Notes: generated by a model from the letters alone, not told the origin. A DNA stretch of 29,947 nucleotides from a virus (UHGV-0175251); one strand, 5' to 3'; counted from the first letter of the stretch, positions 729 to 29,947 are shown. Translations and numbers: made by a program.

Positions 729-1277
729 ATGAAGGTTAATAAAAAGAAGCTCGCGGAAATTTTCAACGTGGATCCACGAACGATTGAACGCTGGCAGTCT
801 CAGGGGCTCTCTTGTGTCTCTGGTGGTAGTAAGGGGGTTGAATCTGTATTTGATACCGCCATGGCAATTCAGTGGTATGCGCAGCGCGAAGCCGATATTG
901 AAAACGAAAAACTCCGCAAAGAGACCGAGGATTTGCGTGCGGCTGCGGAATCAGATTTACAACCCGGCACCATTGACTATGAGCGCTACCGACTCACAAA
1001 AGCACAGGCTGATGCACAGGAACTGAAAAATGCCCGCGAAGAAGGGCTGGTACTGGAAACGGAATTGTTTACCTTCATTCTGCAACGTGTGGCACAGGAG
1101 ATTTCGGGGATACTTGTACGTGTGCCGCTGACATTACAGCGTAAATATCCGGATATTTCACCGTCACACCTTGATGTGGTGAAAACTGAAATCGCAAAAG
1201 CCTCCAACGTTGCAGCTAAAGCTGGTGAGAACGTAGGCGGGTGGATTGATGATTTCAGACGCACAGAAGGCAGCTAA
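729..1277 (+). CDS. nu1: terminase small subunit (lambda Nu1 homolog)
   Basis: Translation [26 protein letters not shown]...[29 protein letters not shown] aligns by eye with lambda Nu1 (N-terminal HTH, DLQPGTIEYER motif). ATG at 729; the ORF-track start at 711 is TTG. Overlaps start of A. Confidence 0.9.
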
Positions 1278-3165
1278 TGCAGCCGGTGCGATAGCAACAG
1301 GGCTTGTATCTCTCAATATTCCGGTACCACTGACGACAGTTCAGTGGGCTGATCAGCATTATTATCTGCCAAAAGAGTCTTCATATACTCCCGGGCAATG
1401 GGAAACACTGCCGTTTCAGGTTGCCATCATGAACAGCATGGGGAATGACCGGATCCGCACCGTTAATCTGATTAAATCGGCGCGTGTTGGTTACACCAAA
1501 ATGCTGTTGGGGGTGGAGGCTTATTTTATTGAACACAAATCCCGTAACAGCCTGCTTTTTCAGCCGACAGATTCTGCGGCAGAAGATTTTATGAAATCCC
1601 ATGTCGAACCAACGATAAGAGACGTTCCTGTATTACTGGAGCTGGCTCCGTGGTTTGGCAGAAAACATCGGGACAACACGCTTACCCTGAAACGTTTCTC
1701 CTCCGGTGTGGGATTCTGGTGTCTGGGCGGAGCTGCTGCCAAAAACTACCGTGAAAAATCTGTGGATGTGGTCTGCTATGACGAACTCTCCTCGTTTGAA
1801 CCGGATGTGGAAAAAGAAGGTTCACCAACTCTGCTTGGCGATAAGCGTATCGAAGGTTCGGTATGGCCTAAATCCATACGCGGCTCAACGCCCAAAATTA
1901 AAGGTTTTTGCCAGATTGAAAAAGCCGCGAACGAATCTGCACATTTTATGCGGTTTTATGTGCCATGCCCTCATTGTGGTGAAGCCCAGTATCTGAAGTT
2001 TGGCGATGATGCGACAACCTTTGGCCTGAAATGGGAGAAGGGCAAGCCGGAGACGGTGTATTACCTGTGTGAACATAATGGCTGCGCGATCCGTCAGTCG
2101 GAACTTGACCAGACCGACGGGCGGTGGATTTGTGACAATACCGGGATGTGGACGCGTGACGGTCTGACATTTTACAGCGCCGGTGATGAGGAAATCCCGC
2201 CACCGCGCTCAATCTCGTACCACATCTGGACGGCATACAGCCCGTTCACCACCTGGGTACAGATTGTTTATGACTGGCTTGATGCACTGAAGGATCCGAA
2301 TGGCGTCAAGACGTTCATTAACACCACGCTGGGGGAGCCTTATGAAGAGGCTGTGGCAGAAAAACTGAGCTTTGAGTTATTGCTGGAAAAAGTCTGCCAC
2401 TATGATGCGCAGGTTCCCCTGCGGGTGGTTTACCTGACCGCAGGGATCGACTCTCAGAAAAACCGTTATGAGATTTATGTCTGGGGCTGGGCTCCTGGCG
2501 AAGAAGCTTTTCTGATTGACAAGCAGATCATCATGGGGAGACCGGAAGATGAGGACACCCTTAAACGCGTTGATGCCGTGATCCGGAAAAAATACCGTCA
2601 TGCAGATGGCACTGAAATTTCCATTTCCCGCGTCTGCTGGGATACCGGTGGTATTGACCAGGACATTGTGTATCAGCGATCCAGAAAACACGGCACTTTT
2701 TTTGTGCTCCCCATCAAAGGGGCGTCGGTGTACGGCAAGCCGGTGATCACCATGCCAAAAAAGCGAAACCAGCGTGGGGTGTTTTTGTGTGAGGTGGGTT
2801 CCGATACCGTCAAGGAAATGCTGTATGCGCGTTTTGCCCTGCCGGTGGTATCTGCCAGTGAAGCCGCACCGTATACCTTCCGTTTTCCGGATAACCCGGA
2901 CATTTTTTCTGATGTTGAAGCTAAACAACTCGTGGCAGAAGAGCTGGTTGAAAAAGTTGTGAACGGGCGGGTGAAACTCCAGTGGGATGCCAGAAAACGG
3001 CGTAATGAAGCTCTGGACTGTCTGGTGTATGCCTATGCAGCGCTGCGCATTTCCGTTCAGCGGTGGCAACTGGATCTGGATGCACTGGCCCGCGCCAGAA
3101 GAGATGAACAGGACGACGATGAAATGACTATTGAAGAAATCGCGGCTGCTCTGAGTGGAGGATAA
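1249..3165 (+). CDS. A: terminase large subunit (lambda gpA homolog)
   Basis: 639-aa ORF; [61 protein letters not shown] and [13 protein letters not shown] motifs match lambda gpA. ATG at 1249. Confidence 0.95.
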
Positions 3166-3168
3166 GTG

Positions 3169-3378
3169 ATGATTTATACGCATGAAATGCTATGCGATGC
3201 CCGCCGGGCGTTACATGAACTGATGATCGGACGTGCTGTGGTTTCCGTCAGCAAGGACGGGCGTCAGGTTCAGTATTCGCGGGCGACAATTGGTGAACTG
3301 CGTCAGTATATTGAAGAGCTGGAAAGTGCGCTGGGTGTATCCGGACGGCGTCGTGGCCCGGCAGGAGTGGGGCTGTGA
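3169..3378 (+). CDS. W: head-tail joining protein (lambda gpW homolog)
   Basis: 69 aa ending RRRGPAGVGL, like lambda gpW (ends RRRGPAGFYV). Sits between A and B as in lambda. Confidence 0.85.
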   Translation: MIYTHEMLCDARRALHELMIGRAVVSVSKDGRQVQYSRATIGELRQYIEELESALGVSGRRRGPAGVGL

Positions 3379-4189
3379 ACGGGGAACTGGTGGATATTCA
3401 TGGGCAGCCTTTACGGCAAAGCATGGGATATTCTGGTGGTGGTTCCGGGTTCGGTGGGCAAATGGCAGAATGGCTGCCTGCACCGGAAAGTGCCGACGTG
3501 GCGCTCTTACCTTCCATTCATCTGGGTAACGCCCGCGCGGATGAGCTGGTCCGTAACAACGGTATTGCATCGAATGCAGTGGAAATTCATAAGGATCATA
3601 TTGTCGGGCACATGTTTCGTCTGAGTTACCGTCCCAACTGGCGCTGGCTGGGGATGTCGGAAGCAGATTCACATGCTTTTATTGAAGATGTTGAGGCGGC
3701 GTGGATGGAATACTGCGATCCGGTGTTTGGTACGATGGATGTGGAAGGGCGTCGTTCGTTTACCGAATTTATTCGTGAAGGGGTGGGGGTCCATACGTTT
3801 AACGGTGAAATTTTTGTCCAGCCCGTATGGGATGCGGAATCCACGTCATTATTCCGGACGAAATTCAAAACCATCAGCCCGAAGCGTGTCAGTACACCCG
3901 GTTATGGTACCGGCGATCGTTTTATGCGTGCCGGGGTGGAAATAAACCGACACGGAAAAGCGCTGGCCTACCATGTTCAGGATGATGACTGGCCCGGCTA
4001 CGGTGTCAGTAAATGGACACGAATTACGGCAACACTGCCTTCCGGACGACCGGGAATGATCCATGTGTTTCAGCCACAGGAAGACGGGCAGACCCGCGGG
4101 GCCAACCAGTTTTATTCTGTAATGGAGCGTCTCAAGATGCTCGACACACTGCAGGCCACGCAACTGCAGTCGGCGGTGGTTCGCGCCAT
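3375..4189 (+). CDS. B: portal protein (lambda gpB homolog), 5' segment; gene interrupted by the insertion at 4190
   Basis: GYSGGGSGFGG, GNARADELVRNNG, FNGEIFVQ and HVFQPQEDGQTRGANQFYSVMERLKMLDTLQATQLQSAVVRA match the lambda portal. Homology stops after codon RA at 4187; the frame then reads 17 unrelated codons to a stop at 4241. GTG start overlapping the W stop. Confidence 0.9.
4183..4189. repeat. left junction 7-bp direct repeat GCGCCAT (candidate attL overlap/core)
   Basis: The same 7 bp recurs at 15010-15016, exactly where portal homology stops and resumes. Flanking bases differ on both sides. Confidence 0.7.
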
Positions 4190-4317
4190 TTATGTCTATT
4201 ATCTCCCCGTAGTTGTCGCCACCATTCATCAACTCCACTAAAACCCTTGATATGTCTGGAATGTCGTTTTTTGTATTTATGATGACCGTTCATTACCTTT
4301 CGTGTTTTTCGCGGTTT

Positions 4318-4371
4318 TGTGTATTGCAATGTGTATTGCAAGTTGGCGTTTGGATGGGGTGTGTATTGCAA
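4318..4371. repeat. integrase arm-type repeats (left arm): three copies of TGTGTATTGCAA
   Basis: TGTGTATTGCAA at 4318-4329, 4330-4341 and 4360-4371. The 19-mer GTATTGCAATGTGTATTGC (4321-4339) is identical to 14916-14934 near the other end. Confidence 0.65.
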
Positions 4372-4390
4372 ATTGACGTGTAGGCTACAT

Positions 4391-5632
4391 ATGGCTATCG
4401 AGAATAAACTGACTGACAAACTTCTGAAAAGTCTTGCAGGTAAGCCGCAGGACAGACAAAAAATCATGGCTGATGGGCGGGGGCTATCTGTTCGTGTAAG
4501 CGTGGTTGGGGGAATTAGTTTCGTTTTTTACTATCGTATTGGCGGCAGGGATGCCCCTCCGGTATGGCTGACCCTTGGGCGTTATCCTGATATGTCTCTG
4601 GCAGCCGCCAGGAGATTACGCGACCAGTGCCGTGAATGGCTGGCGGAAAATCTGGATCCTCGCAGACAAATAAAACTTGTAGCTGAAAAAAACATGCGCC
4701 CTGTAACTGTAAGGGATGCGGTGCTTTACTGGTACGATAATCACGCCAGGACAGCCAGAAAGCAGCATGAGTATTTAATAAAAAGATTTGAAAAGCATAT
4801 TTTTCCATATATCGGAGATATGGCTATAGAACAGTGCAAATTGCATACCTGGCTTACTGTATTTGACAGAATTAAAAAAAATGCTCCTGTTATGTCTGGT
4901 GCTATTTTTCTTGATATTAAACAGGCGTTACGTTTTTGCCGTATCAGGCAATACATTAGTTGCGATCCATTCGGTGATATTAACGTTAGTTATGTTGGAC
5001 GTTCAGCAGGCATAAGGGATCGTGTTCTGAGTATTAATGAAGCCGCTGACGTATGGTCTTATGCCTATGGCAACAATTTACTTACCCTTTCATCAATACA
5101 TAACCGAAGAATTATGGTTATCTGCCTGGTGTTTGGTTGCCGTCAGCAGGAGGCGCGGTTATCCACTTGGGAAGAATGGGATTTAAAAAACTGGATTTGG
5201 ACAGTTCCAAAAGAGCACAGCAAGAACGGCGAGGTTATTGTAAGACCAGTCCCTGATGGAATAAAACAATGGGTTATTAATCTTTATGCGGAAACAAAGC
5301 ACCGGGATTGTGTTATCGGTAGATCACTGAAGCGAGCGACAATAACAGGAGCAGCAAGCCGGATATGCAGGCGGCTAGGGCATGATGTAAATGGTCTGTG
5401 GTGCATACATGATTTCAGGCGTACATTTTCAACAATGCTTAACGATATGGGTGCCGATCCTTATATTGTAGAGCTTCTGCTTGGTCATAAAGTTAAAGGT
5501 GTGGCGGGTGTTTATAATAAAAGCAAGCATGCAAAGAAAAAACTTGAGGTTCTTAATATGTGGGTTAATTACCTTAACACGATAGCCGGATTTAATAATA
5601 ACGTTATTGAACTGAGTAAAGAGGTTGTTTGA
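4391..5632 (+). CDS. int: tyrosine site-specific integrase (P4-type)
   Basis: 413 aa from ATG 4391. N-terminal arm-binding-like region (LTDKLLKSL...GRGLSVRVSVVGGISFVFYYRIGGR...LTLGRYPDMSLAAARR) and C-terminal catalytic motifs (HDFRRTF, LLGHK, VAGVYNK with the tyrosine). Confidence 0.9.
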   Translation: MAIENKLTDKLLKSLAGKPQDRQKIMADGRGLSVRVSVVGGISFVFYYRIGGRDAPPVWLTLGRYPDMSLAAARRLRDQCREWLAENLDPRRQIKLVAEKNMRPVTVRDAVLYWYDNHARTARKQHEYLIKRFEKHIFPYIGDMAIEQCKLHTWLTVFDRIKKNAPVMSGAIFLDIKQALRFCRIRQYISCDPFGDINVSYVGRSAGIRDRVLSINEAADVWSYAYGNNLLTLSSIHNRRIMVICLVFGCRQQEARLSTWEEWDLKNWIWTVPKEHSKNGEVIVRPVPDGIKQWVINLYAETKHRDCVIGRSLKRATITGAASRICRRLGHDVNGLWCIHDFRRTFSTMLNDMGADPYIVELLLGHKVKGVAGVYNKSKHAKKKLEVLNMWVNYLNTIAGFNNNVIELSKEVV

Positions 5633-5633
5633 T

Positions 5634-5891
5634 ATGTCAGTTTATTCACTTGTTGATGAAAAAGATTTTACTGCAATGCCGGATATTGATCGTGTCATTC
5701 GTGAAAAAGAATGCGTGGCACTTACTACGCTGGCAAATTCAACACGCTGGAAACTGGAAAAGACAGGTAAGTTCCCAAAACGTATTAAGATTGGTGAACG
5801 TGCCGCTGGCTATCGTCTCTCGGAGATTCAGGCGTGGATCCGTGGCGATTGGCACCCAGGATGGAAACCGGAAAAAACAAAACAGCAATAA
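5634..5891 (+). CDS. alpA: AlpA-family HTH regulator (possible excisionase)
   Basis: 85 aa, 1 nt after the int stop, GAGG SD. LANSTRWKLEKTGKFPKRIKIGERAAGYRLSEIQAWIR resembles the AlpA family. Confidence 0.7.
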   Translation: MSVYSLVDEKDFTAMPDIDRVIREKECVALTTLANSTRWKLEKTGKFPKRIKIGERAAGYRLSEIQAWIRGDWHPGWKPEKTKQQ

Positions 5892-5907
5892 CCAGGAGAT
5901 AAACACA

Positions 5908-5932
5908 GCCCCGCTCAATGCGGGGTTTTTTG
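5908..5932 (+). terminator. rho-independent terminator after alpA
   Basis: GCCCCGC / TCAAT / GCGGGG hairpin followed by TTTTTT. Confidence 0.75.
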
Positions 5933-5950
5933 TATGTGAGGTAAAAAGCG

Positions 5951-6529
5951 ATGAATAAAAATATTGCCGTGACGGGCAAAGGTGACGCTCGTCTAGTAAA
6001 AAAATTCTGTGATATTCGTGATCTGGTCGTTCTGCGCTTTGATGGTGTGAACGTTCGCGTGGTGTATCTGAACGGCGATCCGTGGTTTGTTGCAGTTGAC
6101 GTGTGCGCTGCGCTGGAAATTGTTGATCACAAGGTTGCGTTACGCCGTCTCGATGATGATGAAAAGGGGGAGTGTTTAATACCCACCCTTGGCGGAAATC
6201 AAACAATGCGAACTGTATGCGAGTCAGGTTTCTACAAACTAATAGCCCGTAGCCGCAAAGCAACGACGCCTGGCACGTTCGCCCATCGTTTCAGTAACTG
6301 GGTATTCAGAAATGTGATACCGGGTATCAGAAAAACGGGGGCTTATGGTATCCCGTGGGGCGCATTACAGGATTTTTCCCGCCGTAAAGAGCAATATCAG
6401 ATAAGTGCCAGCGAGAAGGGGAGGGAGCTACAGGCATGTAAGCGCAAAAAGCGTGAGCTGGAGGAAGAAGAAAAAAGGCTGATACGTGAATATCAGCCTG
6501 AGTTTTACTTTGGTGAGCGTATTCAGTAA
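5951..6529 (+). CDS. Bro-N domain protein (antirepressor-like)
   Basis: 192 aa; N-terminus LRFDGVNVRVVYLNGDPWFVAVDVCAALEI has the Bro-N / phage antirepressor signature; C-terminus charged. GAGGT SD before the ATG. Confidence 0.7.
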   Translation: MNKNIAVTGKGDARLVKKFCDIRDLVVLRFDGVNVRVVYLNGDPWFVAVDVCAALEIVDHKVALRRLDDDEKGECLIPTLGGNQTMRTVCESGFYKLIARSRKATTPGTFAHRFSNWVFRNVIPGIRKTGAYGIPWGALQDFSRRKEQYQISASEKGRELQACKRKKRELEEEEKRLIREYQPEFYFGERIQ

Positions 6530-6810
6530 CCACTCGCAGTGCTGATTATACGGTACATCGTGTTAACCGGGAAGCTACCCACCAGCAAGGCAAAATCTTC
6601 TGCTAAAAAATGATATATGGTCAGCCGTCCGGAAAGCATGAAATTTTACAAAAATGGAAAATGAAGATTTTTATTGTGCTGGTGGGTAAAAACAAAAAGC
6701 GCCCCGTTGCCGGAGCGCCTTTGTGAACAATTAACCTACTGCGCAAAAAATGAATCTGAGCAGTGGGATTATATCAACCGTGTGACGAAGCGCCACAATT
6801 GCCGGATAAC

Positions 6811-6842
6811 AGGCAAAACAAAGGCCACCCGCTACGGTGGCC
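6811..6842 (-). terminator. candidate intrinsic terminator for the leftward small-gene operon
   Basis: GGCCACC / CGCTAC / GGTGGCC perfect 7-bp stem; on the minus strand it is followed by TTTGTTTTG. Confidence 0.5.
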
Positions 6843-6960
6843 CTTCAACACAAGCTACACGTTATCCCCAACGCATGAGCATCACCAACAATGCCACATT
6901 TGCGGCTGGTGGGCAAAGCTTTAGCGGAATTTTTTCCCTGTTGCCTGGAGTGGGTAATGA

Positions 6961-7143
6961 TTACTTGTATCGCTTATTCCTGCACAAAACAGGGCTGCTC
7001 TTTTTGATGAAATCCTCAAGCAAAAAACACTCTGTTGATGCTCTTGGTAATTCTCTGGTGGAAGGATGGGGTTTTATCCCCCATTTTCGTTTACGTTCTT
7101 CCAGAAAGGAGGTGAGTATATCTAGTTTCTGTGCGTCCATCAT
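6961..7143 (-). CDS. hypothetical small protein (60 aa)
   Basis: Third ORF in a leftward series with regular 57-bp spacing; weak SD; no recognisable homology. Confidence 0.3.
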   Translation of the reverse strand: MMDAQKLDILTSFLEERKRKWGIKPHPSTRELPRASTECFLLEDFIKKSSPVLCRNKRYK

Positions 7144-7200
7144 TTTTCTCTTGGATACTTCTTTGTGCCATGGATCCTCACACCACGGCGCTGATAGTGG

Positions 7201-7398
7201 TTATTTCTGCTCTTCAACATCACCATGTCGTGATGTTTTCCAGGTATGCGACCCCATTTTTGTGCGCCTGTACTCTTTTAAGAACTTCTCAAGGCCAAAC
7301 GCACATGGCGCGAATCTCTCCTGTTCTTGTTCGCTTACCGCGTTTTTGCGTTGTTTTTTCCTGGATGAAGATAATTTCTTTAATGATTTGTCAGTCAT
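7201..7398 (-). CDS. hypothetical small basic protein (65 aa)
   Basis: Second ORF of the leftward series (MTDKSLKKLSSSRKKQRKNAV...); no recognisable homology. Confidence 0.35.
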   Translation of the reverse strand: MTDKSLKKLSSSRKKQRKNAVSEQEQERFAPCAFGLEKFLKEYRRTKMGSHTWKTSRHGDVEEQK

Positions 7399-7455
7399 CG
7401 TAGATACCTGTAACCCAGTGCGCCACAGTTCACCGCACCACGGCGCTGGTGATGG

Positions 7456-7635
7456 TTACTCCTGCTCTTTGGCCTTGCGACGCTGGCGGCGTTTGATCTC
7501 GCCTTGCATTGACGCAATGATGAATTGTGATGTGCTTTCGCCTGATTCTTTCACTGATTCCATGGCGTTTACTATTTCGTGTGGTACACGAGCCTTTAGA
7601 GCTTGTGATTTTGCGTTTGTTGTACCCGTTGCCAT
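7456..7635 (-). CDS. putative ribbon-helix-helix DNA-binding protein (candidate repressor)
   Basis: 59 aa from ATG at 7635-7633 with GAGG SD. ALKARVPHEIVNAMESVKE...TSQFIIASMQGEI fits a strand-helix-helix pattern. Transcribed divergently from the rightward operon. Confidence 0.5.
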   Translation of the reverse strand: MATGTTNAKSQALKARVPHEIVNAMESVKESGESTSQFIIASMQGEIKRRQRRKAKEQE

Positions 7636-7639
7636 TTCT

Positions 7640-7740
7640 ATTCCTCTGGTGGATTGGTGGGGAACAGTATACACAGAAAAAACACAAATAAAACTCTTGA
7701 CGTGGACCACACCTAAAACATATAGTGGGCCACACCTTAA
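7640..7740. promoter_or_regulatory. divergent promoter/operator region of the element
   Basis: Rightward TTGACG (7697-7702) and TATAGT (7721-7726), 18-bp spacer. Direct repeats TGGACCACACCT (7703-7714) and TGGGCCACACCT (7725-7736) overlap it. Leftward -10 TATACT on the minus strand around 7657-7662 precedes the RHH gene. Confidence 0.55.
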
Positions 7741-7834
7741 AATTATCAAGGCGCATAAATGCAAAGCCCCGCAAGTGTCGTTACCACTCGCAGGGCTTCT
7801 AACCACCAACGATAGAAAGAGTATCGAGGTAGCT

Positions 7835-8038
7835 ATGAGAAATCATACCACACACCCGCAAGGGCGGGACTCGCACAACCTGAATAAATACATCTGGCGT
7901 TTTATCGCCCTGAGCACGGCACAACCGCGCGTGATTACCATCGAGGCCACCAGCGAACAGGAAGCACGCCAGCAATCTCCGGCTGGCTGCGTGATGGTAT
8001 TCGCCGCCCGTATTCGCCAGGAGGTGCGCCATGATTAA
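7835..8038 (+). CDS. hypothetical protein (possibly Icd-like)
   Basis: 67 aa, first gene after the rightward promoter, GAGG SD. KYIWRFIALSTAQP...FAARIRQEVRH resembles Icd-like proteins of P4-type elements from memory only. Confidence 0.45.
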   Translation: MRNHTTHPQGRDSHNLNKYIWRFIALSTAQPRVITIEATSEQEARQQSPAGCVMVFAARIRQEVRHD

Positions 8039-8243
8039 CCTGTCACTTACCGACCTTAACCGCATTCAGTTTCGTGAGAAATTTACCGGGCAGTTGTTGG
8101 TTAATGTGGATAAAGGTCGCGTGGTGTGTAATTACCACCTGCCAGATGAAGCAATTGTCGCAACAAGGGAATCATTACAGGAACTCGCAGAGCGTGCCGG
8201 AATGATTAACGCGAATATTCAGGGGGTGAGACATGTGCAATAA
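8031..8243 (+). CDS. hypothetical protein (70 aa)
   Basis: ATG overlaps the upstream stop (translational coupling); part of the operon. Confidence 0.45.
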   Translation: MINLSLTDLNRIQFREKFTGQLLVNVDKGRVVCNYHLPDEAIVATRESLQELAERAGMINANIQGVRHVQ

Positions 8244-8496
8244 CCCCCGTCCGGACGCAGCCGCCGAAGCTATCAGAACGCTGATGCACGCGCTGATTGA
8301 TATTTCATGCACGGCAGCAACCGCAGAAAAACACATTACCATAGAGCCGGAATATACAGGGGCAATAATCCCGCATTCGCTGGCATACGCACAGCTTACC
8401 GCTGATATGGCACTGAATGAGGCCAAAGCTATCCTGATTGCTGATTGTGAAAATGGGGGGGGGTGGTTATGCGTGATGATCGTTTTAATGCCCTGA
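8233..8496 (+). CDS. hypothetical protein (87 aa)
   Basis: AGGGGG SD; overlaps neighbours; no recognisable homology. Confidence 0.4.
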   Translation: MCNNPRPDAAAEAIRTLMHALIDISCTAATAEKHITIEPEYTGAIIPHSLAYAQLTADMALNEAKAILIADCENGGGWLCVMIVLMP

Positions 8497-8702
8497 AACA
8501 GGAATTTGATGGCGCACCGGAAGATACAGATATTGCGCTGTTATGTGTTGCTGACATGGTAAAAGCTGCATGTTTTTTACTGGAAACCGCCGAACATTCA
8601 GGAACGGGTAGCGATATTCTCAATATTGCGTCGGACTATGCGGAATATGTGGCAGAGACGCGTTACAGAAGTAAATTCCCGGAGGGGGTGAGCCATGCAT
8701 GA
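8469..8702 (+). CDS. hypothetical protein (77 aa)
   Basis: G-rich SD; first in-frame ATG at 8469 (track start 8463 is GTG). Confidence 0.4.
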   Translation: MRDDRFNALKQEFDGAPEDTDIALLCVADMVKAACFLLETAEHSGTGSDILNIASDYAEYVAETRYRSKFPEGVSHA

Positions 8703-8928
8703 TATTTACAATGACACAGTAGACCATGCATACAGCGCACTTGCTTACAGTGAAAACATGCTTGAAATATTGCGCTTATGGCTTGAAACGCTTGGCGATA
8801 ATGAAAGAGATAAACGCAACAGCAATATTGCAACAGCATTAATAACGCTTCTTGAGCCTGTAATAAATGAACTGCAAGAAATAGACATCTTGCACGACAG
8901 ATATAAAGAGCCACACACCGGAGAATAA
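8695..8928 (+). CDS. hypothetical protein (77 aa)
   Basis: GGAGGGGG SD; start overlaps the upstream stop. Confidence 0.45.
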   Translation: MHDIYNDTVDHAYSALAYSENMLEILRLWLETLGDNERDKRNSNIATALITLLEPVINELQEIDILHDRYKEPHTGE

Positions 8929-8933
8929 AAACC

Positions 8934-9233
8934 ATGAAAAAGAAAAATTCTGGCTTTACTGCCAGCGGCCCCGCTCGGCCTGAAATCCGCCCAGGCGATA
9001 TTTTCCGGGATAACTACGGCGGCACGGTAACGATTAAAAGTATTGCCGGACGGTGCGTTACTTACCGCCGTGATGGGTACAGCTACGACTGCGTGATGCC
9101 TGTTTATCAGTTCCGGCGTGATTTTTCGCTGGTACAGGCCACACCACGCAGACAGCCCACCAGCAACGCAAAGGCACGGGCAAATATTCAGAAAATGAAA
9201 AACATGATTAACGCATTCAGGGGTAAAAAATGA
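8934..9233 (+). CDS. hypothetical protein (99 aa)
   Basis: GGAGAA SD; its stop overlaps the start of the replication gene (ATGA). Confidence 0.45.
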   Translation: MKKKNSGFTASGPARPEIRPGDIFRDNYGGTVTIKSIAGRCVTYRRDGYSYDCVMPVYQFRRDFSLVQATPRRQPTSNAKARANIQKMKNMINAFRGKK

Positions 9234-10645
9234 AACTGGCACCGAACTTAAAAAAACAGCCGCACGACAAAATGACCGAAGTCATTATTTTTGCGGGTAG
9301 TGATGCCTGGGCGCACGCGAAACAGTGGCAGGAACAGGACGGGCGACTTGCTGGCGACAACGTGCCGCCTGTATGGCTTGGAGACAACCAGCTTGACGAA
9401 CTGGCAGACCTGAAAATCATCGATGATGGTCGCTATTGTGTCCGGCTGTACAAGGCAGGCCACATCAAGCCGTCAAATATTAATGCCATCGGGCAAAAGC
9501 TGGCGGCGGCAGGTGTACGGGATGCGAATTATTACCCTGAGGGAATGCACAGCCAGAAGCTGGAGAACTGGCACGACTACCTGCAACGGATCCGCGAACA
9601 GGCAGAGCGCGGGGAAATACTTACTGACGAGCAATACAGCCAGCGAAAAACCACACTACCAATGAGCATTGGGTCCGCAGGATACGACACACAGCTTGAT
9701 TATGTCGTTAAGGGCGTGATTCCGGCTAATTCGTTGTGCAGCACATACGGCGCGAGCGGTTCCTATAAATCGTTCCTCGCGTGTTCCTGGGCGTGTCATG
9801 TTGCCACGGGTCGCCACTGGGGAGGCCGCAGGGTGGCGCATGGTTCGGTGATGTATGTTGTCGGTGAAGGGGGTATAGGTGTCCCCCGCCGTATCAAGGC
9901 ATGGGAAATCGTTAATGATGAACGGGTGGAAAATTTGTACCTGGTAAACCGCCCGATTTTTCCGGCTGTCCCGCTTGATGTTGATGAAATGGTTATCGCG
10001 TCCCGCCAGGTTGAACGGGAAACGGGTAAACCGGTACGCATGATTATTCTGGATACGCTGGCGCGTTGCTTTGGTGGTAATGATGAAAATGACGCGCGGG
10101 ATATGGGGGCGTTTATCCGTGGATGTGACGAACTGAAACGACGCACAGGGGCCACGGTGCTGGTGGTTCACCATTCCGGCAAGGATGAAACAAAGGGGGC
10201 ACGTGGTTCCAGTGCATTTCGTGCATCTCTGGACGCTGAATACCGTATTCGCCGTGAAGGTGCGGACAGTGAAGCCCTGGTTATCTCCTGCACCAAAATG
10301 AAGGACGCGGAGGAACTGAAAGAGGCTGCATATGATTTACGCGTGGTGGAGCTTTTTACCGACGCTGACAAGGAGTTAATCACGTCGCTGGTGGTTGTGG
10401 ATAAGCCGCGCCCACCAGTTGAACTGGAGCGCATCGAGGAAGCCGGGAACAAGACGGAGAATCACGCCGCGCTATGGGGCTGTATCCGTTCACGCACACA
10501 GCGCGGCGATAAATGCACTATCCCGTTATTGCGTGATGATATGAAAAAGCTGGGGTATGAGATGAAGCACTTTAGTCGCTGGTTACGCAAGCTGGAAAGT
10601 GACGACGTAATCGCTATTGACGGCGATGATGTTCACCCGATGTAA
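9230..10645 (+). CDS. replication initiator / RepA-like (AAA_25-type) helicase
   Basis: 471 aa. Deviant Walker A GASGSYKS, Walker B-like RMIILDTLARCF and VLVVHHSGKDETKG motif typical of RepA-like RecA-fold helicases. Iterons immediately downstream. Primase activity cannot be judged from sequence alone. Confidence 0.7.
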   Translation: MKLAPNLKKQPHDKMTEVIIFAGSDAWAHAKQWQEQDGRLAGDNVPPVWLGDNQLDELADLKIIDDGRYCVRLYKAGHIKPSNINAIGQKLAAAGVRDANYYPEGMHSQKLENWHDYLQRIREQAERGEILTDEQYSQRKTTLPMSIGSAGYDTQLDYVVKGVIPANSLCSTYGASGSYKSFLACSWACHVATGRHWGGRRVAHGSVMYVVGEGGIGVPRRIKAWEIVNDERVENLYLVNRPIFPAVPLDVDEMVIASRQVERETGKPVRMIILDTLARCFGGNDENDARDMGAFIRGCDELKRRTGATVLVVHHSGKDETKGARGSSAFRASLDAEYRIRREGADSEALVISCTKMKDAEELKEAAYDLRVVELFTDADKELITSLVVVDKPRPPVELERIEEAGNKTENHAALWGCIRSRTQRGDKCTIPLLRDDMKKLGYEMKHFSRWLRKLESDDVIAIDGDDVHPM

Positions 10646-10850
10646 AAAGTGGGGAACAAAAGTGGGGAGAGTGGGGAATTTAACAAAAAATCAACGTTAC
10701 TCCCCACTTTCCCACCTGTATATACCCAAAAAAGTGGGGAGTAAAAAACACATTGAAAAACATCACGTTAGAATCACAAAAAAACGAGGTGGGGAGCAAG
10801 TGGGGAATTTTAAAAAGTGGGGAACAAAAGTGGGGAGTGGTGGGGAATGA
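10646..10850. repeat. iteron array: about 10 copies of GTGGGGA (candidate ori)
   Basis: GTGGGGA at 10649, 10662, 10671, 10734, 10789, 10800, 10817, 10830, 10840 and inverted (TCCCCAC) at 10701, set in A-rich DNA directly after the rep stop. Confidence 0.75.
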
Positions 10851-11098
10851 ACAGAAAAACCAGAGATAAAACAGTGCCAAAATATCGCGCATTAGACATG
10901 ACAGAGCACGCCTTAAAGGTGGCAATCAGAACGATAGACCGCCACGCCGGGGAAGGATACGCGAAAGCACATCCCGAACTGATAAGCGCATTCATGGCCA
11001 CGACGGCGGCAAACTTTGCCACGCTGACAGAACGGGAGATTGCCGAAGCGGAACAGGTGACAACCATCAACGTTAAAACCGGAGAGCAAACAGCATGA
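10847..11098 (+). CDS. hypothetical protein (83 aa)
   Basis: ATG at 10847 at the end of the iterons; overlaps the SSB start. Confidence 0.4.
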   Translation: MNRKTRDKTVPKYRALDMTEHALKVAIRTIDRHAGEGYAKAHPELISAFMATTAANFATLTEREIAEAEQVTTINVKTGEQTA

Positions 11099-11517
11099 CA
11101 GCACAGATAGCGGCTTACGGGCGGCTGGTGGCTGACCCACAGTTAAAGACCACCAGCAAAGGGACACAAATGGCGATGGCGAGTATGGCGGTTCCCCTGC
11201 CGTGCAGCCAAGCAGATGACGGAACGGCGACGATGTGGTTATCCGTCCTGGCGTTTGGCAGACAGGCCGACGCACTGGCAAAACACCACAAAGGCGAACT
11301 GGTGAGCGTGGCGGGTAACATGCAGGTAAGCCAGTGGACAGGCCAGAACGGCGAAACGCGGCAGGGCTGGCAGGTTATCGCAGACAGCGTAATCAGTGCC
11401 AGAACGGCGCGACCGGGCGGCAAAAAAGGCCAGCAGGGCCAGGCTACTGACGCACTGAACAGGGCAAAACAACAGGCGGGAAATGATGATCCGTACTGGG
11501 ATAACATACCGTTTTAA
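11095..11517 (+). CDS. ssb: single-stranded DNA-binding protein
   Basis: 140 aa with OB-fold-like pattern (GRLVADPQL...W.SV.AFG..A..L.KH.KGELVSVAG...W....G..R....V) and an acidic C-terminal tip ...DPYWDNIPF resembling the E. coli SSB DDDIPF tail. Confidence 0.65.
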   Translation: MTAQIAAYGRLVADPQLKTTSKGTQMAMASMAVPLPCSQADDGTATMWLSVLAFGRQADALAKHHKGELVSVAGNMQVSQWTGQNGETRQGWQVIADSVISARTARPGGKKGQQGQATDALNRAKQQAGNDDPYWDNIPF

Positions 11518-11533
11518 GCAACGAGTGACAGAA

Positions 11534-11597
11534 GCCGGGATTTTTCCCGGCTTTTTTGTGCGCAAAAAAAATCCCCCGGGATGAGGTTCCGGGGGAT
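11534..11597. terminator. pair of hairpins: + strand terminator (11534-11558) and a minus-oriented one (11571-11597)
   Basis: GCCGGGA / TTTTT / TCCCGGC then TTTTTT; followed by AAAAAAAA, ATCCCCCGG / 9-nt loop / CCGGGGGAT. Confidence 0.7.
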
Positions 11598-11674
11598 TTC
11601 ACGCCGCTAACGTGATTAGCGCTGAATGACTCTGTGGTACAAGGAGTAAAACCACGGCATCATGATTTCATGAT

Positions 11675-11723
11675 TTGCAACAACAGTCAATGTCATTGCA
11701 AAAAATGCAATGATAATTAAAAT
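11675..11723 (+). promoter_or_regulatory. candidate promoter with overlapping palindromic operator for the capsid module
   Basis: TTGCAA (11696-11701), 16-bp spacer, TAAAAT (11718-11723). Perfect palindrome CATTGCA-AAAAA-TGCAATG (11694-11712) overlaps the -35. Confidence 0.45.
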
Positions 11724-11775
11724 CATGAATGACTTTTCGTTATGTTTATTTTTTAGTCAAAGAGGAATCTCATTT

Positions 11776-11982
11776 ATGGGAACACAGAAGCCGGGCGGTG
11801 TATCCGTGTACATCAGCCCCGATATTATCGCCGCACTTAATGCGCGCTTTGAGGAGAACGCAGAGGCAGGAAAAAAAATCGGCCTTGATCCGTTGTGCCT
11901 GGTGAAGCCGTCAGTCGGCTGGATGGTACGCAGCCATTTACGCGCTGCGCTTGGTATGAATCAGCCTCATGGGGGTGAGTAA
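11776..11982 (+). CDS. hypothetical small protein, possibly ribbon-helix-helix
   Basis: 68 aa, AAGAGG SD. VSVYISPDIIAALNARFEENAEAGKK...WMVRSHLRAAL is compatible with an RHH fold. Stop overlaps the capsid-homolog start. Confidence 0.4.
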   Translation: MGTQKPGGVSVYISPDIIAALNARFEENAEAGKKIGLDPLCLVKPSVGWMVRSHLRAALGMNQPHGGE

Positions 11983-13037
11983 TGACAGCGCCGCAACTGG
12001 TAAGCACACCAACGCTACTGAAAAATATCGGGCGCGAAGATGTGCCGGAATTTAAATTTAATCCACTCTTTACTACGTTGTTCTTTCCGAACGTCGCTAC
12101 TTTCAGCACCAGAGATATTGCACTTGATACGCTGGATATTGAAAACGTGGTCATGAGTCCGTTTTGTTCTCCAATGTCAGGCAGCCAGGTTATGCGTGAC
12201 AAAGGTTTCACAACGAACACGTTCACGCCGGGTTATATGAAGCCCAAACACGTTATTGATCCCACCAAAACAATCATGCGCATGGCTGGAGAACAGATCG
12301 GCAATGGTCAGTCTTCCCCGGCACTACGCCGCGTAAAAATGGTTCACGACAGCCAGAAAAAACAGCTTGCTGCCATCAAAGCGCGTGTTGAATGGCTGGC
12401 GGTCAATGCCATCACAACAGGCCGTAACGTTATTGAAGGCGAAGGCATTGAGCGTTATGAAATTGACTGGGGATTACCCGCAACCAATCATATTACGCAG
12501 GCTGGCGGGAAAGAATGGTCAAAACAGGATGCCGAAACGTTTGATCCGATAAGCGACATTGAGGCTTACGCTGATTTTTCCAAAGGTACGGTAAATATTA
12601 TCGTCATGGGTGGCGAAGCCTGGCGTATTTTGCGCTCGTTCCGTCGATTCCGCGAACTCCTGGACACGCGTCGCGGTTCAAACTCGTCACTTGAACTTGC
12701 GCTAAAAGATTTGGGCGGCGTTGTCAGCTTCAAGGGGTATCTCGGTGATGTGGCGCTCGTGGTTTATTCCGGTCGTTATGACGACGAATACGGGCAGCAG
12801 CAATATTTCCTGAAACAAAACATGCTGGTTTTCGGCAATACCGAAAATAAAGGCCTTGTTGCTTATGGTGCCATCATGGATCAGGACGCGGCACGCGAGG
12901 GGTTTTCTGAGGGGATGTACTACCCGAAAAATTATATCGTACCTGGCGATCCGGCGATTGAATACGTGCAGACGCACAGCGCCCCGCAGCCAGTACCCGT
13001 GGATATTGGTCGCTTTGTTACCGTCGAAGTGAAATAA
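11982..13037 (+). CDS. major capsid protein homolog (lambda gpE-like), element-encoded
   Basis: 351 aa. Shares FTPGY.KPKH, NITQAGG[KR]EWSKQ[DN]A[ED]TFDP, REKLDTRRGS, ALKDLG.VVSFKGY, GNT...G..YGAI.D and YPK motifs with the prophage E protein (17825-18853) and with lambda gpE. Confidence 0.9.
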   Translation: MTAPQLVSTPTLLKNIGREDVPEFKFNPLFTTLFFPNVATFSTRDIALDTLDIENVVMSPFCSPMSGSQVMRDKGFTTNTFTPGYMKPKHVIDPTKTIMRMAGEQIGNGQSSPALRRVKMVHDSQKKQLAAIKARVEWLAVNAITTGRNVIEGEGIERYEIDWGLPATNHITQAGGKEWSKQDAETFDPISDIEAYADFSKGTVNIIVMGGEAWRILRSFRRFRELLDTRRGSNSSLELALKDLGGVVSFKGYLGDVALVVYSGRYDDEYGQQQYFLKQNMLVFGNTENKGLVAYGAIMDQDAAREGFSEGMYYPKNYIVPGDPAIEYVQTHSAPQPVPVDIGRFVTVEVK

Positions 13038-13047
13038 AGGGGATCGT

Positions 13048-13377
13048 ATGCCAACACCTTACACGCAATTCCTTTCCGGCACGCAGGAACTGGTCAGCAC
13101 GCTGGCCTGTTTTGCCAGTGCCGGAGAAATTAAAGCGAGAACTCCGCTGATGCAGAACGGCGCGGGCCTGATGGTTGAGTGGGACGGTACACCCGGTAAG
13201 GCGGTGTATCTGACCATATCGGACATTAACACGGCCACAAAAAACCGCGCACAGGTTTATAAGTGCGGGGTTTTTAATATCGATGAAATTAACTGGCCTG
13301 ATACAGCGGACACGTTCGAGAAAAAAGTGTCGGCTTTTGTTGGTTCCGGTATTTCCGTGCAGCCTTTAGGGCAATAA
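13048..13377 (+). CDS. head decoration protein homolog (lambda gpD-like), element-encoded
   Basis: 109 aa directly after the capsid homolog. TPLM, WDG and AFVGSGIS motifs shared with the prophage D (17420-17755). Confidence 0.7.
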   Translation: MPTPYTQFLSGTQELVSTLACFASAGEIKARTPLMQNGAGLMVEWDGTPGKAVYLTISDINTATKNRAQVYKCGVFNIDEINWPDTADTFEKKVSAFVGSGISVQPLGQ

Positions 13378-13391
13378 TTTTGTGGTGATTT

Positions 13392-13817
13392 ATGACTGAG
13401 AAAGCAAATTCAACCAGAGCATTGATCATGGCACTGCCTGAGGCGCAGAAATACCCGACGCTTGCGGAAAATCTCGCAAATAATGGCGCATCACTGACAG
13501 AAGCCCGAACGGTGCTTACTGCAAAGGCTGAGAGTGATAAACAGCGCATAGAGGGTATCAAGGCGTTACCGCTGGCATCAAAATACCCTGAGTTCACCAG
13601 TAAGCTGATTGAGTGTGGTTCTGAAGTAATGACAGTAACCTATGCACAAACGTTACTGGCTGCCGTGGATGCCCAGGCAATGATGCAGGAAAAGAAAACG
13701 GCTTTTCTGTTTGAAGCGTACATGGAAAAGCACAGCCCGAAATGTGTTGGATCAGCAGCCGGTGATGGCAACGCCGGACTGACCGAAGATGAAAAGCTGT
13801 TGCTGTCTGTTAAGTAA
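13392..13817 (+). CDS. scaffold-like protein (Nu3-like repeats), element-encoded
   Basis: 141 aa. Two repeat-like units (ALPEAQKYPTLAENL..., ALPLASKYPEFTSKL...) and C-terminus TAFLFEAYMEKH...GDGNAGLTEDEKLL resemble the repeat unit and C-terminus of the prophage C/Nu3 (...VTLFERFMAQH...GTAGNGEEELL). Confidence 0.6.
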   Translation: MTEKANSTRALIMALPEAQKYPTLAENLANNGASLTEARTVLTAKAESDKQRIEGIKALPLASKYPEFTSKLIECGSEVMTVTYAQTLLAAVDAQAMMQEKKTAFLFEAYMEKHSPKCVGSAAGDGNAGLTEDEKLLLSVK

Positions 13818-13830
13818 CTGAAATGAACGT

Positions 13831-13863
13831 TCGCGAGGCTGGCAAGGTCTCGCGATTTTTTTT
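13831..13863 (+). terminator. rho-independent terminator after the capsid module
   Basis: TCGCGAG / 11-nt loop / CTCGCGA followed by eight Ts. Confidence 0.8.
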
Positions 13864-13896
13864 GTATCCGTAACGGTGGTGATCGCCCCAATTTTC

Positions 13897-13975
13897 ACGG
13901 GTCCTTTCCAGAACCAGAAACACCGCGGGGCGGCAGACGCGCAAAAAAGCGCTATTTATGACGCTTTCCGGGAAA
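13897..13975 (+). promoter_or_regulatory. element-borne cos site
   Basis: ACGGGTCCTTTCC (13897-13909), GGGGCGGCAG (13927-13936) and GCTATTTATGA (13951-13961) reproduce the prophage cos motifs at 509/540/564 with nearly identical spacing (30 vs 31 and 24 vs 24 nt). Flanking sequence differs. Confidence 0.75.
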
Positions 13976-14028
13976 GGGTACACCACCACCACTTGATTAA
14001 TATTTAATCGCATTATTAAGGTAACGTT

Positions 14029-14469
14029 ATGAATAATAAAGATTGTTTTGTTAGTCAGCAGGAAATAGCAGAACATTTCAAGGTCAACAGAACCACTATT
14101 CGCGCATGGACCAAACAGGGCATGCCGTATCTTGATGCGGATCGCGGAAAGTCCGGCGGTTATCACATCGGACACACATTATTCTGGTGCATGGGTAAAA
14201 GTCATCTTGATGCTATTGAGTACCACGGAGAAACCAGCGCACTGGAAAAGATTATGGTTGCCAGGTTGATTTCATTAGAGCGCGACGAGTATTTCAGTGA
14301 AGAAACAGAACAGCGATTTGATAATGGTCTGCAGATTTACGGGTACTCGCCGGAAGATGTGAGCAAGGCACGAAATAAAATGGCTGGCTTTCTGGCTGGG
14401 TGGCGTCATGCCGTAGCCGTTCGCCGTGAGCATCTGCAACAATCTGTAGTTACAGAGCAGGAAAACTAA
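14029..14469 (+). CDS. small terminase-like protein (Nu1-like N-terminal HTH)
   Basis: 146 aa just downstream of the element cos. N-terminus VSQQEIAEHFKVNRTTIRAWTKQGMPYLDADRGKSGG parallels Nu1 ([24 protein letters not shown]...GGSKG). The C-terminal half is unrelated to Nu1. Confidence 0.65.
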   Translation: MNNKDCFVSQQEIAEHFKVNRTTIRAWTKQGMPYLDADRGKSGGYHIGHTLFWCMGKSHLDAIEYHGETSALEKIMVARLISLERDEYFSEETEQRFDNGLQIYGYSPEDVSKARNKMAGFLAGWRHAVAVRREHLQQSVVTEQEN

Positions 14470-14476
14470 TAAGTAT

Positions 14477-14573
14477 GCAATACAACAACCGCGTATTTTT
14501 GTTAAACCATTTGATTTAATTGGCATTTTTGGAGCCATAACATCAAAAAAACACCCTCAGGTTGTTGTATTGC
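14477..14573. repeat. 14-bp perfect inverted repeat GCAATACAACAACC / GGTTGTTGTATTGC separated by 69 bp
   Basis: 14477-14490 and 14560-14573; contains the GTATTGC motif also present in the arm-type repeats. Confidence 0.5.
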
Positions 14574-14751
14574 TTTCAGTTTTCTCTTAGTTATCAAATG
14601 GATATAACAAACAATTAAACAACAACCACCCCCTCAAAAAATCTCATAAACAGCGCGTTTTTGCGCGTATGGCTACCCCCGGTGTTTTATTTTCCAGGAA
14701 GGACCCGCCACAATTACGGCATTGTTTTCCATCACCACGGAGGCCATGACA

Positions 14752-14937
14752 ATGACCGAAGCCGAAATGCTCAAAATGATTCGCCGCGTTACCGGATCCA
14801 GCAAGACAGCAGGCAAACAGGAGACCACGCAGCCGGACAGCGTGATAGCCGAAAATTACGCGCGTGTGGTGGCTGAGGTGATGCGCCGTGACGGTATTCA
14901 CAAGCAACAATTTGCGTATTGCAATGTGTATTGCTAA
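14752..14937 (+). CDS. hypothetical small protein (about 61 aa)
   Basis: GGAGG SD at 14739-14743; the 3' end runs into the arm-type repeats. Coding status uncertain. Confidence 0.3.
   Translation: MTEAEMLKMIRRVTGSSKTAGKQETTQPDSVIAENYARVVAEVMRRDGIHKQQFAYCNVYC
14913..14936. repeat. integrase arm-type repeats (right arm)
   Basis: TGCGTATTGCAA + TGTGTATTGCTA; the 19-mer GTATTGCAATGTGTATTGC at 14916-14934 is identical to 4321-4339. Confidence 0.65.
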
Positions 14938-15009
14938 CCCTCCAAACGGGGGAAATATGCAAACATAACATATTGTTTTGTCTTTTTATTTTTTCGTATC
15001 TTTTCATAA

Positions 15010-15016
15010 GCGCCAT
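15010..15016. repeat. right junction 7-bp direct repeat GCGCCAT (candidate attR overlap/core)
   Basis: Identical to 4183-4189; portal homology resumes exactly here. Confidence 0.7.
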
Positions 15017-15773
15017 GTATGCCGCCACGATTGAATCCACACTGGATTCGGAAAAAGCGTTTGAATATATCGCCGGGGTGGGAGATGGAGGTAAAAATCC
15101 CCTGAACACCATCATGAAAGGCTACGCGCGTTATTACGCCACCAATACGGTAAAACTGGGCGGGGTCCGTATTCCGCATCTTTACCCGGGAGATTCACTG
15201 AATCTGCAGACAGCCCAGAATGCGGATAATGGTTTTTCTGAACTGGAAAAGGCGCTGTTACGTTACATTGCTGCCGGACTGGGTGTGTCGTATGAGCAGC
15301 TTTCCCGGGATTATTCACAGGTCAGTTATTCCAGTGCCAGGGCATCCGCCAATGAGTCGTGGCGGTATTTTATGGGAAAACGAAAATTTGTGGCCAGTCG
15401 CCTGGCGTCACAGATGTTTGCCTGCTGGCTGGAGGAAGCCCTTATTCGTGGTGTGATCCGTCCGCCGAAATCCCGTTTCTCATTCTGGGAGGCTCGTTCC
15501 GGGTGGTGCCGTGCCGAGTGGATTGGTGCCGGTCGTATGGCGATTGATGGCCTTAAGGAAGTGCAGGAAGCGGTGATGCGCATTGAAGGCGGCCTGAGTA
15601 CATACGAGAAAGAGCTGGCCCTGATGGGGGATGACTATCAGGAGATTTTCCGCCAGCAGCTACGGGAAACTCAGGAGCGACAGGCTGCCGGTCTTCCGCG
15701 TCCGGTCTGGATAAAGAACGCGTTTCAACAGCAGATCCGACAGACAACGGGAGAAAAAGGCGATGCGCTGTAA
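15017..15773 (+). CDS. B: portal protein (lambda gpB homolog), 3' segment
   Basis: (S)AMYAATIES..., GVRIPHLYPGDSLNLQTAQNADNGF, LLRYIAAGLGVSYEQLSRDYSQVSYSSARASANESW and GRMAIDGLKEVQEAVM match the C-terminal half of the lambda portal. Joined to 3375-4189 it gives a continuous 523-codon ORF. Confidence 0.9.
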
Positions 15774-17379: not shown

Positions 17380-17419
17380 GCGGGGATCCGTGATTCAGAT
17401 AAATCAGGAGACTGAGAAA

Positions 17420-17755
17420 ATGATTAAAACCACCACAGAAAAGCGCGCGGACGGGCGCATTTTTGCCGGAAGCGATCCGGTATATACCGCAACAGGTACC
17501 AGTGGTATCAGTGTTGCCACGCCTTCACTGACGCCACTGATGCTGGATGACGCCAGCGGAAAACTGGTGGCATGGGATGGTCAGAAAGCCGGAACGGCTG
17601 TGGGGGTGCTGGTACTGGCGCTGGCCGGGACCGAGCCCACACTGACGTACTACAAAAGCGGTACGTTTGCCACCGAATCGCTGGTCTGGCCGGATTCGGT
17701 GGATGCGGTGAAAAAAGCCAACGCGTTTGTGGGAAGTGCCATCAGCCACGCCTGA
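17420..17755 (+). CDS. D: head decoration protein (lambda gpD homolog)
   Basis: 111 aa from ATG 17420 with AGGAG SD; TPLMLD..S.KLVAWDG and YKSGTF...AFVGSAIS match gpD. Confidence 0.9.
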   Translation: MIKTTTEKRADGRIFAGSDPVYTATGTSGISVATPSLTPLMLDDASGKLVAWDGQKAGTAVGVLVLALAGTEPTLTYYKSGTFATESLVWPDSVDAVKKANAFVGSAISHA

Positions 17756-17777: not shown

Positions 17778-17809
17778 AACGGGTCGTGATGCGGCCCGTT
17801 TGTGTTTTT
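17778..17809 (+). terminator. stem-loop between D and E (attenuator/terminator-like)
   Basis: AACGGGTCG / TGATG / CGGCCCGTT (9-bp stem with one G-U) followed by a T-rich tract. Confidence 0.5.

Positions 17810-27564: not shown

Positions 27565-29947
<2,383 letters not shown>

Follow-up and report, generated by a model that had tools for sequence, protein, structure and literature searches.

A portal gene split in frame by an inserted element

In the viral sequence UHGV-0175251, whose 29,947 nucleotides were analysed as a whole (hereafter the window), the portal gene of a lambda-like prophage is interrupted by an element of 10,827 bp (4190-15016, + strand, one repeat copy counted) that is most likely a helper-embedded phage-inducible chromosomal island (HE-PICI), a satellite residing within a late gene of the prophage that serves as its helper. 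The insert is bounded by two copies of the 7-bp direct repeat GCGCCAT, one at 4183-4189 (the attL identity block and crossover region, corresponding to the upper-case block in Supplementary File 3 of the survey that described such elements) and one at 15010-15016 (the attR identity block, Supplementary File 4 of the same work; Tommasini, Mageeney and Williams, NAR Genom Bioinform 2023; PMC10111431). Beyond the right end of the repeat the flanking sequences resemble each other imperfectly (GCGCCATtTATGtC vs GCGCCATgTATGcC), and exact identity between attL and attR is limited to the 7 bp plus a few scattered bases. When the insert is removed, the 5' portal fragment (3375-4189, + strand, 815 nt; codons 1-271 plus 'at') and the 3' fragment (15017-15773, + strand, 757 nt; 'g' plus codons 273-523 and the stop) join into one in-frame open reading frame (ORF) of 523 codons plus stop, in which the split codon is the ATG of position 272 and the GCGCCAT overlap spans codons 270-272. 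Pfam Phage_portal_2 aligns to the rejoined protein as one continuous match, from profile position 2 to 353 of 354 (E = 8e-95). Without excision the 5' fragment reads on through 17 unrelated codons to a stop at 4241, and in one sister locus (L013) it has been called as a 288-aa Phage_portal_2 product. The GTG start at 3375 gives 523 aa, whereas the RefSeq start for the intact portal lies 16 codons downstream and gives 507 aa, a discrepancy that has no effect on the finding that the portal is split.

Reconstruction of the recombination products predicts a restored portal junction (attB) of GTTCGCGCCATGTATGCC (junction string GGTGGTTCGCGCCATGTATGCCGCC) and a satellite circle junction (attP) of TTTTCATAAGCGCCATTTATGTCT (junction string CTTTTCATAAGCGCCATTTATGTCTATT). 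In the latter, GCGCCAT is flanked by the inverted pentamers CATAA and TTATG, and attP and attB have in common the whole 7-bp overlap and four of the five bases of the right core arm. The target gene is disrupted and attP carries no sequence that would replace the missing part of it. A first-pass annotation of this DNA had already reported the GCGCCAT-bounded insert of 10,827 bp, the 815 and 757 nt that rejoin into 523 codons and the inverted CATAA and TTATG of the circle junction; its coordinates proved exact, and the attP reconstruction reproduces the inverted arms.

Gene content of the satellite

The gene plan of the insert is that of a phage-inducible chromosomal island (PICI) of the Gram-negative type, and this gene set supports the first-pass view of a satellite-like tyrosine-recombinase element lodged in an essential structural gene of its likely helper. 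It lies between the gpW and C protease genes, all of its main genes are on the + strand, which is the orientation of the helper late operon, and its zones follow the order integration, Bro, replication and late, with zones and co-orientation as published for HE-PICIs (PMC10111431). The integration zone comprises a P4-type tyrosine integrase of 413 aa from its ATG (Int, 4391-5632, + strand; Pfam Arm-DNA-bind_3, Phage_int_M and Phage_integrase; PHROG 1), whose ORF as listed has a GTG start at 4319, and an AlpA-family excisionase/regulator (5634-5891, + strand, 85 aa as called in sister loci; Pfam Phage_AlpA, E = 3.8e-15). It is followed by a Bro-N/antirepressor-like gene (5951-6529, + strand; Pfam Bro-N, E = 5.8e-16; PHROG 2593, anti-repressor, E = 1e-78). 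Five small conserved genes (8031-9233, + strand; PHROGs 340, 5146/2512, 2512/24341, 2196 and 285), the first annotated as 'Icd-like' in relatives and the last encoding a DUF4222 protein (8934-9233, + strand), precede the replication zone (9230-11517). This contains a RepA-type replicative helicase (9230-10645, + strand; Pfam AAA_25, E = 3.2e-44; PHROG 2850, E = 2e-249, with primase/helicase families among the PHROG matches ranked below) and a single-strand DNA-binding protein (SSB; 11095-11517, + strand; Pfam SSB, E = 3.9e-16). Between them lies a putative replication origin (10643-10858, no strand assigned), made of two 48-nt GTGGGGA(A)-rich iteron blocks (10643-10690 and 10811-10858, repeat family D4, 85% identity), to which origin function is ascribed because the iterons stand directly after the helicase gene.

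The late zone (11982-14469) encodes a major capsid protein of the lambda gpE family (11982-13037, + strand; Pfam Phage_cap_E, E = 3.4e-46; PHROG 29), a head decoration protein of the gpD family (13048-13377, + strand; Pfam HDPD; PHROG 49) and a scaffold-like protein (13392-13817, + strand; PHROG 53, the C-terminal end of a head maturation protease, and PHROG 1999). These are 46% and 41% identical to the helper capsid (17786-18853) and decoration (17390-17755) proteins and 36% identical to residues 409-535, in the C-terminal part, of the helper C protein, respectively, and by sequence comparison they are homologous to their helper counterparts and well diverged from them. A cos-like site (13923-13975, + strand), in which 40 of 54 nt are identical to helper positions 536-589, is followed by a gene for a Nu1-like helix-turn-helix (HTH) protein that has a small-terminase-like N-terminal domain only (14029-14469, + strand; PHROG 57, E = 2.5e-8, residues 2-46 only). 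This protein is 33% identical to the N-terminus of helper Nu1, and relatives have longer 'terminase small subunit' genes at its place. Among the element ORFs scanned against Pfam and PHROG there was no match to portal, connector or HNH families and no large terminase gene, and the sole protease-related match was that of the scaffold-like protein to the C-terminal end of PHROG 53.

The stretch between the Bro-N and Icd-like genes (6530-8030) is variable and holds no convincing + strand gene. Two small genes on the - strand (7201-7398 and 7456-7632) fall in the pair PHROG 21027 (E = 1.6e-42) and PHROG 949 (E = 1.7e-21), both families of unknown function; these were the two that PHROGs placed among the small minus-strand ORFs at 6961-7809, for which Pfam gave no match, and at the equivalent place L001 and L003, two further sister loci, have annotated YlcI/YnfO-family genes. 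A 454-codon ORF with a TTG start (6674-8038) was rejected as a gene, given its low-complexity translation, the real small genes on the opposite strand and the fact that its strand is left uncalled in most sister loci. Also in this zone are a 51-nt direct repeat (7164-7214 and 7419-7469, 255 nt apart), two strong terminator-like hairpins on the minus strand (6695-6722 and 6820-6845) and, at 7697-7726 on the + strand, the best promoter-like match within the region scanned (3300-15800). Its content differs among sisters: L008, for instance, has a Phage_ASH gene here and L004 an ORF of 342 aa. C4 or isrK immunity RNA occurs in some HE-PICI Bro zones (PMC10111431); neither these nor any other credible RNA family came up in Rfam when the complete window was searched with gathering thresholds and the element with a cut-off of E <= 1.

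Attachment sites and assignment to the published class

The survey of Tommasini, Mageeney and Williams described HE-PICIs at 14 sites in prophage late genes, starting from an 11-kb PICI within capsid gene E of a lambdoid prophage and adding 491 further elements at the 14 late-gene sites (PMC10111431). The diagnostic feature of their attP is a doubled tgTGTATTGCantgTGTATTGCa on both sides of the centre, 81 +/- 2 bp before and 132 +/- 2 bp after it (PMC10111431), and the window element has both copies. In the P' arm, the doubled motif tgTGTATTGCaatgTGTATTGCa (4318-4340, + strand, with a third copy at 4362-4369) contains an exact match (4320-4339) that begins 132-134 nt past the attP centre, and in the P arm gcGTATTGCaatgTGTATTGCt (14913-14935, + strand) contains one with a single mismatch (14915-14934) that ends 79-80 nt before it. 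There are no other doubled copies of the motif in the window, in which TGTATTGC occurs nine times against 1.26 expected. The upstream doubled motif contains the end of a small conserved ORF (14752-14937; PHROG 1561, function unknown, called with 61 aa in sister loci), whose last codons (YCNVYC) are the arm motif itself, and the GTG extension of int at 4319 likewise opens with the other doubled motif (MYCNVYC).

One of the published sites, B:Phage_portal_2:241, has members with the identity block "gcgccat" (PMC10111431). Its name appears about 200 times in the published table, twice per row, which corresponds to roughly 100 elements. The listed sisters, among them Eco14386.11, Eco10760.11 and Eco13983.11, measure 10,824-10,826 bp by the published coordinates (Supplementary File 1), and for one B_Phage_portal_2_241 element a 58-kb helper composite has been mapped at potB (PMC10111431). 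The published attL and attR of Eco10760.11, Eco13983.11 and Eco8720.11 are letter-identical to window positions 4128-4290 and 14958-15110, and the element-side att sequence next to int (about 130 nt) is identical to that of listed members. By these sequence matches the element is already known, as a listed member, in another or the same copy, of the published class. The first-pass annotation knew of no described case of such an arrangement; it was in fact published in 2023, with site and identity block, and a 2024 review already cites helper-embedded PICIs.

Unoccupied and occupied sites in other genomes

For the empty site, an 800-nt reconstruction was compared with 5,426 complete E. coli genomes. 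Six of them contain it at 100% identity inside uninterrupted annotated portal genes, and 12 further genomes contain it at >=99.4% identity, again with the portal gene uninterrupted. This shows that the predicted attB exists in nature, which is no proof that the window copy excises. After removal of the insert, the window is colinear with a prophage of E. coli C5, to which it is 98.9% identical over 8.6 kb through the restored junction and 96% identical over 9.9 kb of tail genes, and the rejoined portal differs from that of E. coli C5 at two of 507 residues. For the occupied site, the exact integrase protein is present in 292 blocks of a public-assembly index, from which 24 contigs were read; the exact integrase was found in 10 places on them. 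In all 10, int lies just after Nu1, gpA and gpW, and in seven both exact junction strings are present, spaced 10,822-11,365 bp apart. At least seven independent NCBI assemblies, including several complete chromosomes, have identical junction strings; carrier strains include those of CP057487.1, CP056928.1 and CP058012.1. The two comparisons that the first-pass annotation had suggested, namely a search for uninterrupted portals in related prophages and for the same element at the same codon, thus both gave positive results. None of the complete RefSeq E. coli genomes contains the exact composite over >=80% of its length, the carriers having come via the exact-protein index, and an integrase scan of GTDB species-representative genomes gave no confirmed relative.

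Related elements use the same portal codon with other overlaps. The sister element in L003, whose integrase is 89% identical, occupies this codon in a different portal, where the overlap is AAGCCAT, and sister overlaps at this codon include AGGCGAT and AAGCCAT in Escherichia and GGGCGAT in Serratia, each matching its own helper portal, while CATAA...TTATG is kept by the Escherichia sister elements examined. An overlap that varies between fixed core-type sites is reasonably read as the pattern of a tyrosine recombinase, and it fits the first-pass proposal of an overlap with core sites. The arrangement is far beyond chance: integration is shown to be a conservative site-specific event in which the portal is split and not replaced, and the same integrase lineage reuses the codon.

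Several related loci depart from the window. In the carrier assembly L005 (17385-21242), the satellite ends after the small gene upstream of the capsid gene and is joined to helper tail genes (the gpJ C-terminus, Lom and tail fibre); attR is missing, and the deletion, which runs from the satellite late zone to gene J, has removed the satellite late genes, the 3' half of the portal and most helper head and tail genes. L005 is a decayed composite. In L012 (14947-16701), a D5_N/DUF5906 primase replaces the RepA-type helicase in a sister element that has the same integrase and junctions as the window, which shows that modules of the replication zone are swapped inside a single att-site group. E. 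coli VG35A2 (NZ_CP128590.1) has the same portal site unoccupied (2885103-2885902, 99.9% identity) and, elsewhere on the chromosome (1805545-1812680), a satellite 97% identical to the replication and late zones of the window element; the same satellite backbone thus also exists outside the helper, presumably with another integrase.

Helper genes flanking the element

Upstream of the element, the helper has a cos-like site with the lambda cosN-like sequence GGGCGGC...CGCTATTTATGA (536-589, + strand), which we take to resemble the left end of lambda, located upstream of Nu1 (711-1277, + strand; Pfam Phage_Nu1, E = 2.6e-83). The gpA-type large terminase (1246-3165, + strand) and gpW (3166-3378, + strand) that follow were assigned from ORF layout, with GpA_ATPase/GpA_nuclease and gpW, respectively, called in sister loci. 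Beyond the element lie the genes for C, an S49 protease/scaffold (15763-17379, + strand), a D-like decoration protein (17390-17755, + strand) and an E-like capsid protein (17786-18853, + strand), all colinear with the annotation of the E. coli C5 prophage. The C gene contains three to four tandem repeats of 138 nt (46 codons; 16743-17252) that are 78-85% identical, and a 36-nt motif of each repeat is also found in the satellite scaffold-like gene (13628-13663). A 472-codon minus-strand ORF (28495-29913) was discarded as a gene because helper gene J, which is cut off by the end of the window, lies on the opposite strand of the same stretch.

Proposed life cycle and alternative explanations

The data are best accounted for by an HE-PICI of site group B:Phage_portal_2:241 whose P4-type integrase recombined its attP GCGCCAT with portal codons 270-272, a reading to which we give a probability of about 0.9. 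As nothing in attP makes up for the lost 3' end of the portal gene, integration leaves that gene interrupted, and no portal can be made until the satellite excises precisely; both partners depend on this excision, since the satellite does not encode a portal itself. The life cycle can be outlined by analogy with the one sister that has been induced, 11capE. In response to mitomycin C, the 11capE composite excises precisely and replicates, and the satellite excises thereafter, later, at 2 h, with restoration of the late gene and excision reaching 42-98% at 2-3 h (PMC10111431). In the window composite, the prophage would likewise be induced, excise and replicate, copying the satellite passively. 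Helper late transcription would then run into the co-oriented satellite and lead to expression of int and alpA, whose products would excise the satellite precisely and thereby restore the portal frame. The satellite would replicate by means of its own RepA helicase and iteron origin, and the helper terminase would package it through its cos-like site into heads built on the helper portal, probably with the satellite's own capsid, decoration and scaffold-like proteins.

Several points weigh against this account. The sole induction experiment concerns a member located in capsid gene E, from which virions of neither partner were recovered, and many helpers look truncated (PMC10111431). Some composites are visibly decaying, such as L005 with its deletion spanning the satellite late zone and the helper genes up to J, so that any single composite may be a dead end. 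That late transcription reads through is something that we infer, and the + strand contains terminator-like hairpins at 5907-5927 and 13831-13855; a Q-modified (antiterminated) polymerase would be expected to ignore them. Finally, the integrase was placed in the HE-PICI clade through att strings, the arm motif and its 89% identity to the L003 integrase and not through a tree, features which together give strong indirect support.

The decay just mentioned raises the alternative that insertion of the satellite killed the prophage and that the composite is an immobile remnant, in which the arrangement has no regulatory role. The deletion in L005, which fuses the satellite to helper tail genes, the many truncated helpers and the lack of virions from the model composite (PMC10111431) would all agree with such a fate. 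In the window, however, the two portal halves are free of stops and, once rejoined, almost identical to the intact portal; the helper late genes present there are without exception open and retain colinearity with the unoccupied prophage, and all satellite genes are intact. Moreover, the same integrase lineage occupies this codon in diverged portals with an overlap that matches each helper, and a sister element excised after induction (PMC10111431). A dead end is thus an unlikely explanation. Still less probable is off-target integration by a PICI with a normal chromosomal site, the portal location being accidental. For HE-PICI integrases 28 such events are documented, and fis or hpt serves as the site of related integrases (PMC10111431), but int stood at the portal position in every place read, the published table has its roughly 100 elements at this one site and attP and attB match over the full overlap and most of the right core arm, all of which make an accident very improbable. 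That the composite is an assembly chimera of a chromosomal island and a prophage contig, the artefact which the first-pass annotation had named as a possible refutation, found no supporting point and is excluded, since the same junctions recur in independent assemblies and in the draft genomes of PMC10111431, and the 7-bp duplication with exact restoration of the frame is a signature of site-specific recombination.

A second integrase type and a possible role of the portal target

Two further loci, L001 (E. coli TUM9812, 2364-2374 / 12985-12995) and L002 (E. coli PapRG-04-4, 10453-10461 / 21606-21614), carry satellites with replication and late zones about 94% identical to those of the window element and a different integrase of 410 aa, which is 26% identical to that of the window and 94.6% identical between the two. 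They have no doubled TGTATTGC and instead repeat GGACTAGAA..TTTGTA in both arms. In L001 the interrupted gene is that of a gpA-type large terminase, whose parts of 983 and 934 nt rejoin in frame to 639 codons (identity block CACATCTGGAC), and the L002 element splits a gene of 189 codons, stop included (406 + 161 nt, identity block TCTCTTTTG), located in the tail region between head-tail joining genes and baseplate V. This integrase type is present in five complete E. coli genomes, in two at the terminase site and in three at the other site, and its att sequence is absent from the att files of PMC10111431. By its sequence it may represent a second lineage of helper-embedded satellites, and it is the one thing described here that possibly goes beyond the 2023 survey.

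The portal is the nucleator of procapsid assembly. Held split until Int and AlpA act, it could appear only after satellite head proteins have accumulated, and if this is true the delayed portal would bias head assembly towards satellite-type capsids. That the portal is a functional rather than an arbitrary target and, separately, that helper-embedding has arisen in more than one integrase lineage are suggestions which, taken together, we regard as tentative and rather doubtful. A satellite that splits the portal gene is in any case a parasite of a virus located inside an essential gene of that virus, where it controls when particles can form.

Comparison with known systems

The window element does not differ in any respect that we found from the HE-PICIs of site B:Phage_portal_2:241, with which it has in common the target gene and codon, the gcgccat block, the letter-identical att flanks, the size of about 10.8 kb, the distances of the doubled TGTATTGC, the zone order and the co-orientation. 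The founding HE-PICI, Eco567.11capE, located in gene E of a lambdoid prophage of E. coli NRG857c, is the only member with measured excision. It also splits a late gene without replacing it from attP, is co-oriented, has its own capsid gene and has a cos-like region in common with its helper. It differs in its target (E:Phage_cap_E:80) and in its 10-bp identity block, and also in that its satellite capsid gene could in principle replace the disrupted helper gene, whereas the window element, lacking a portal gene, offers no substitute before excision.

Classical Gram-negative PICIs such as EcCICFT073 resemble the window element in their int-alpA pair, replication module with origin, dependence on lambdoid cos helpers and size of about 11 kb, but they are integrated at sites of the chromosome, from where they act on the helper only in trans; EcCICFT073 reportedly redirects packaging with Rpp. 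The capsid-forming PICIs (cf-PICIs) likewise encode a major capsid protein and accessory head proteins. Their module for head formation and packaging is complete, with portal, protease, connectors, TerS and HNH, and they take only tails from the helper; in the window element the ORFs scanned yielded no more of such a module than genes for capsid, decoration, scaffold-like and Nu1-like HTH proteins. P4-like satellites are marked by a core set of Psu, Delta, Sid, Alpha primase and Epsilon and by the CI/seqA immunity RNA. The resemblance of the window element to them is restricted to the integrase and AlpA: among its Pfam and PHROG matches there is no counterpart of Psu or Sid, and Rfam gave no C4 or isrK hit, so that the element does not belong with the P4-like satellites. 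A mobile intron or intein was also discarded, as there is no Rfam intron family and the insert is a multi-gene one with an integrase and a 7-bp target duplication. A more distant parallel is found in regulated gene integrity, or active lysogeny, as exemplified by the skin element in sigK of Bacillus subtilis and the comK prophage in Listeria. In these systems, as here, a split gene is restored only by precise excision and its expression is conditional on that event. There, however, the gene is a cellular one and the switch serves the cell, whereas in the window the split gene is part of a second mobile element and the presumed beneficiary of the switch is the satellite.

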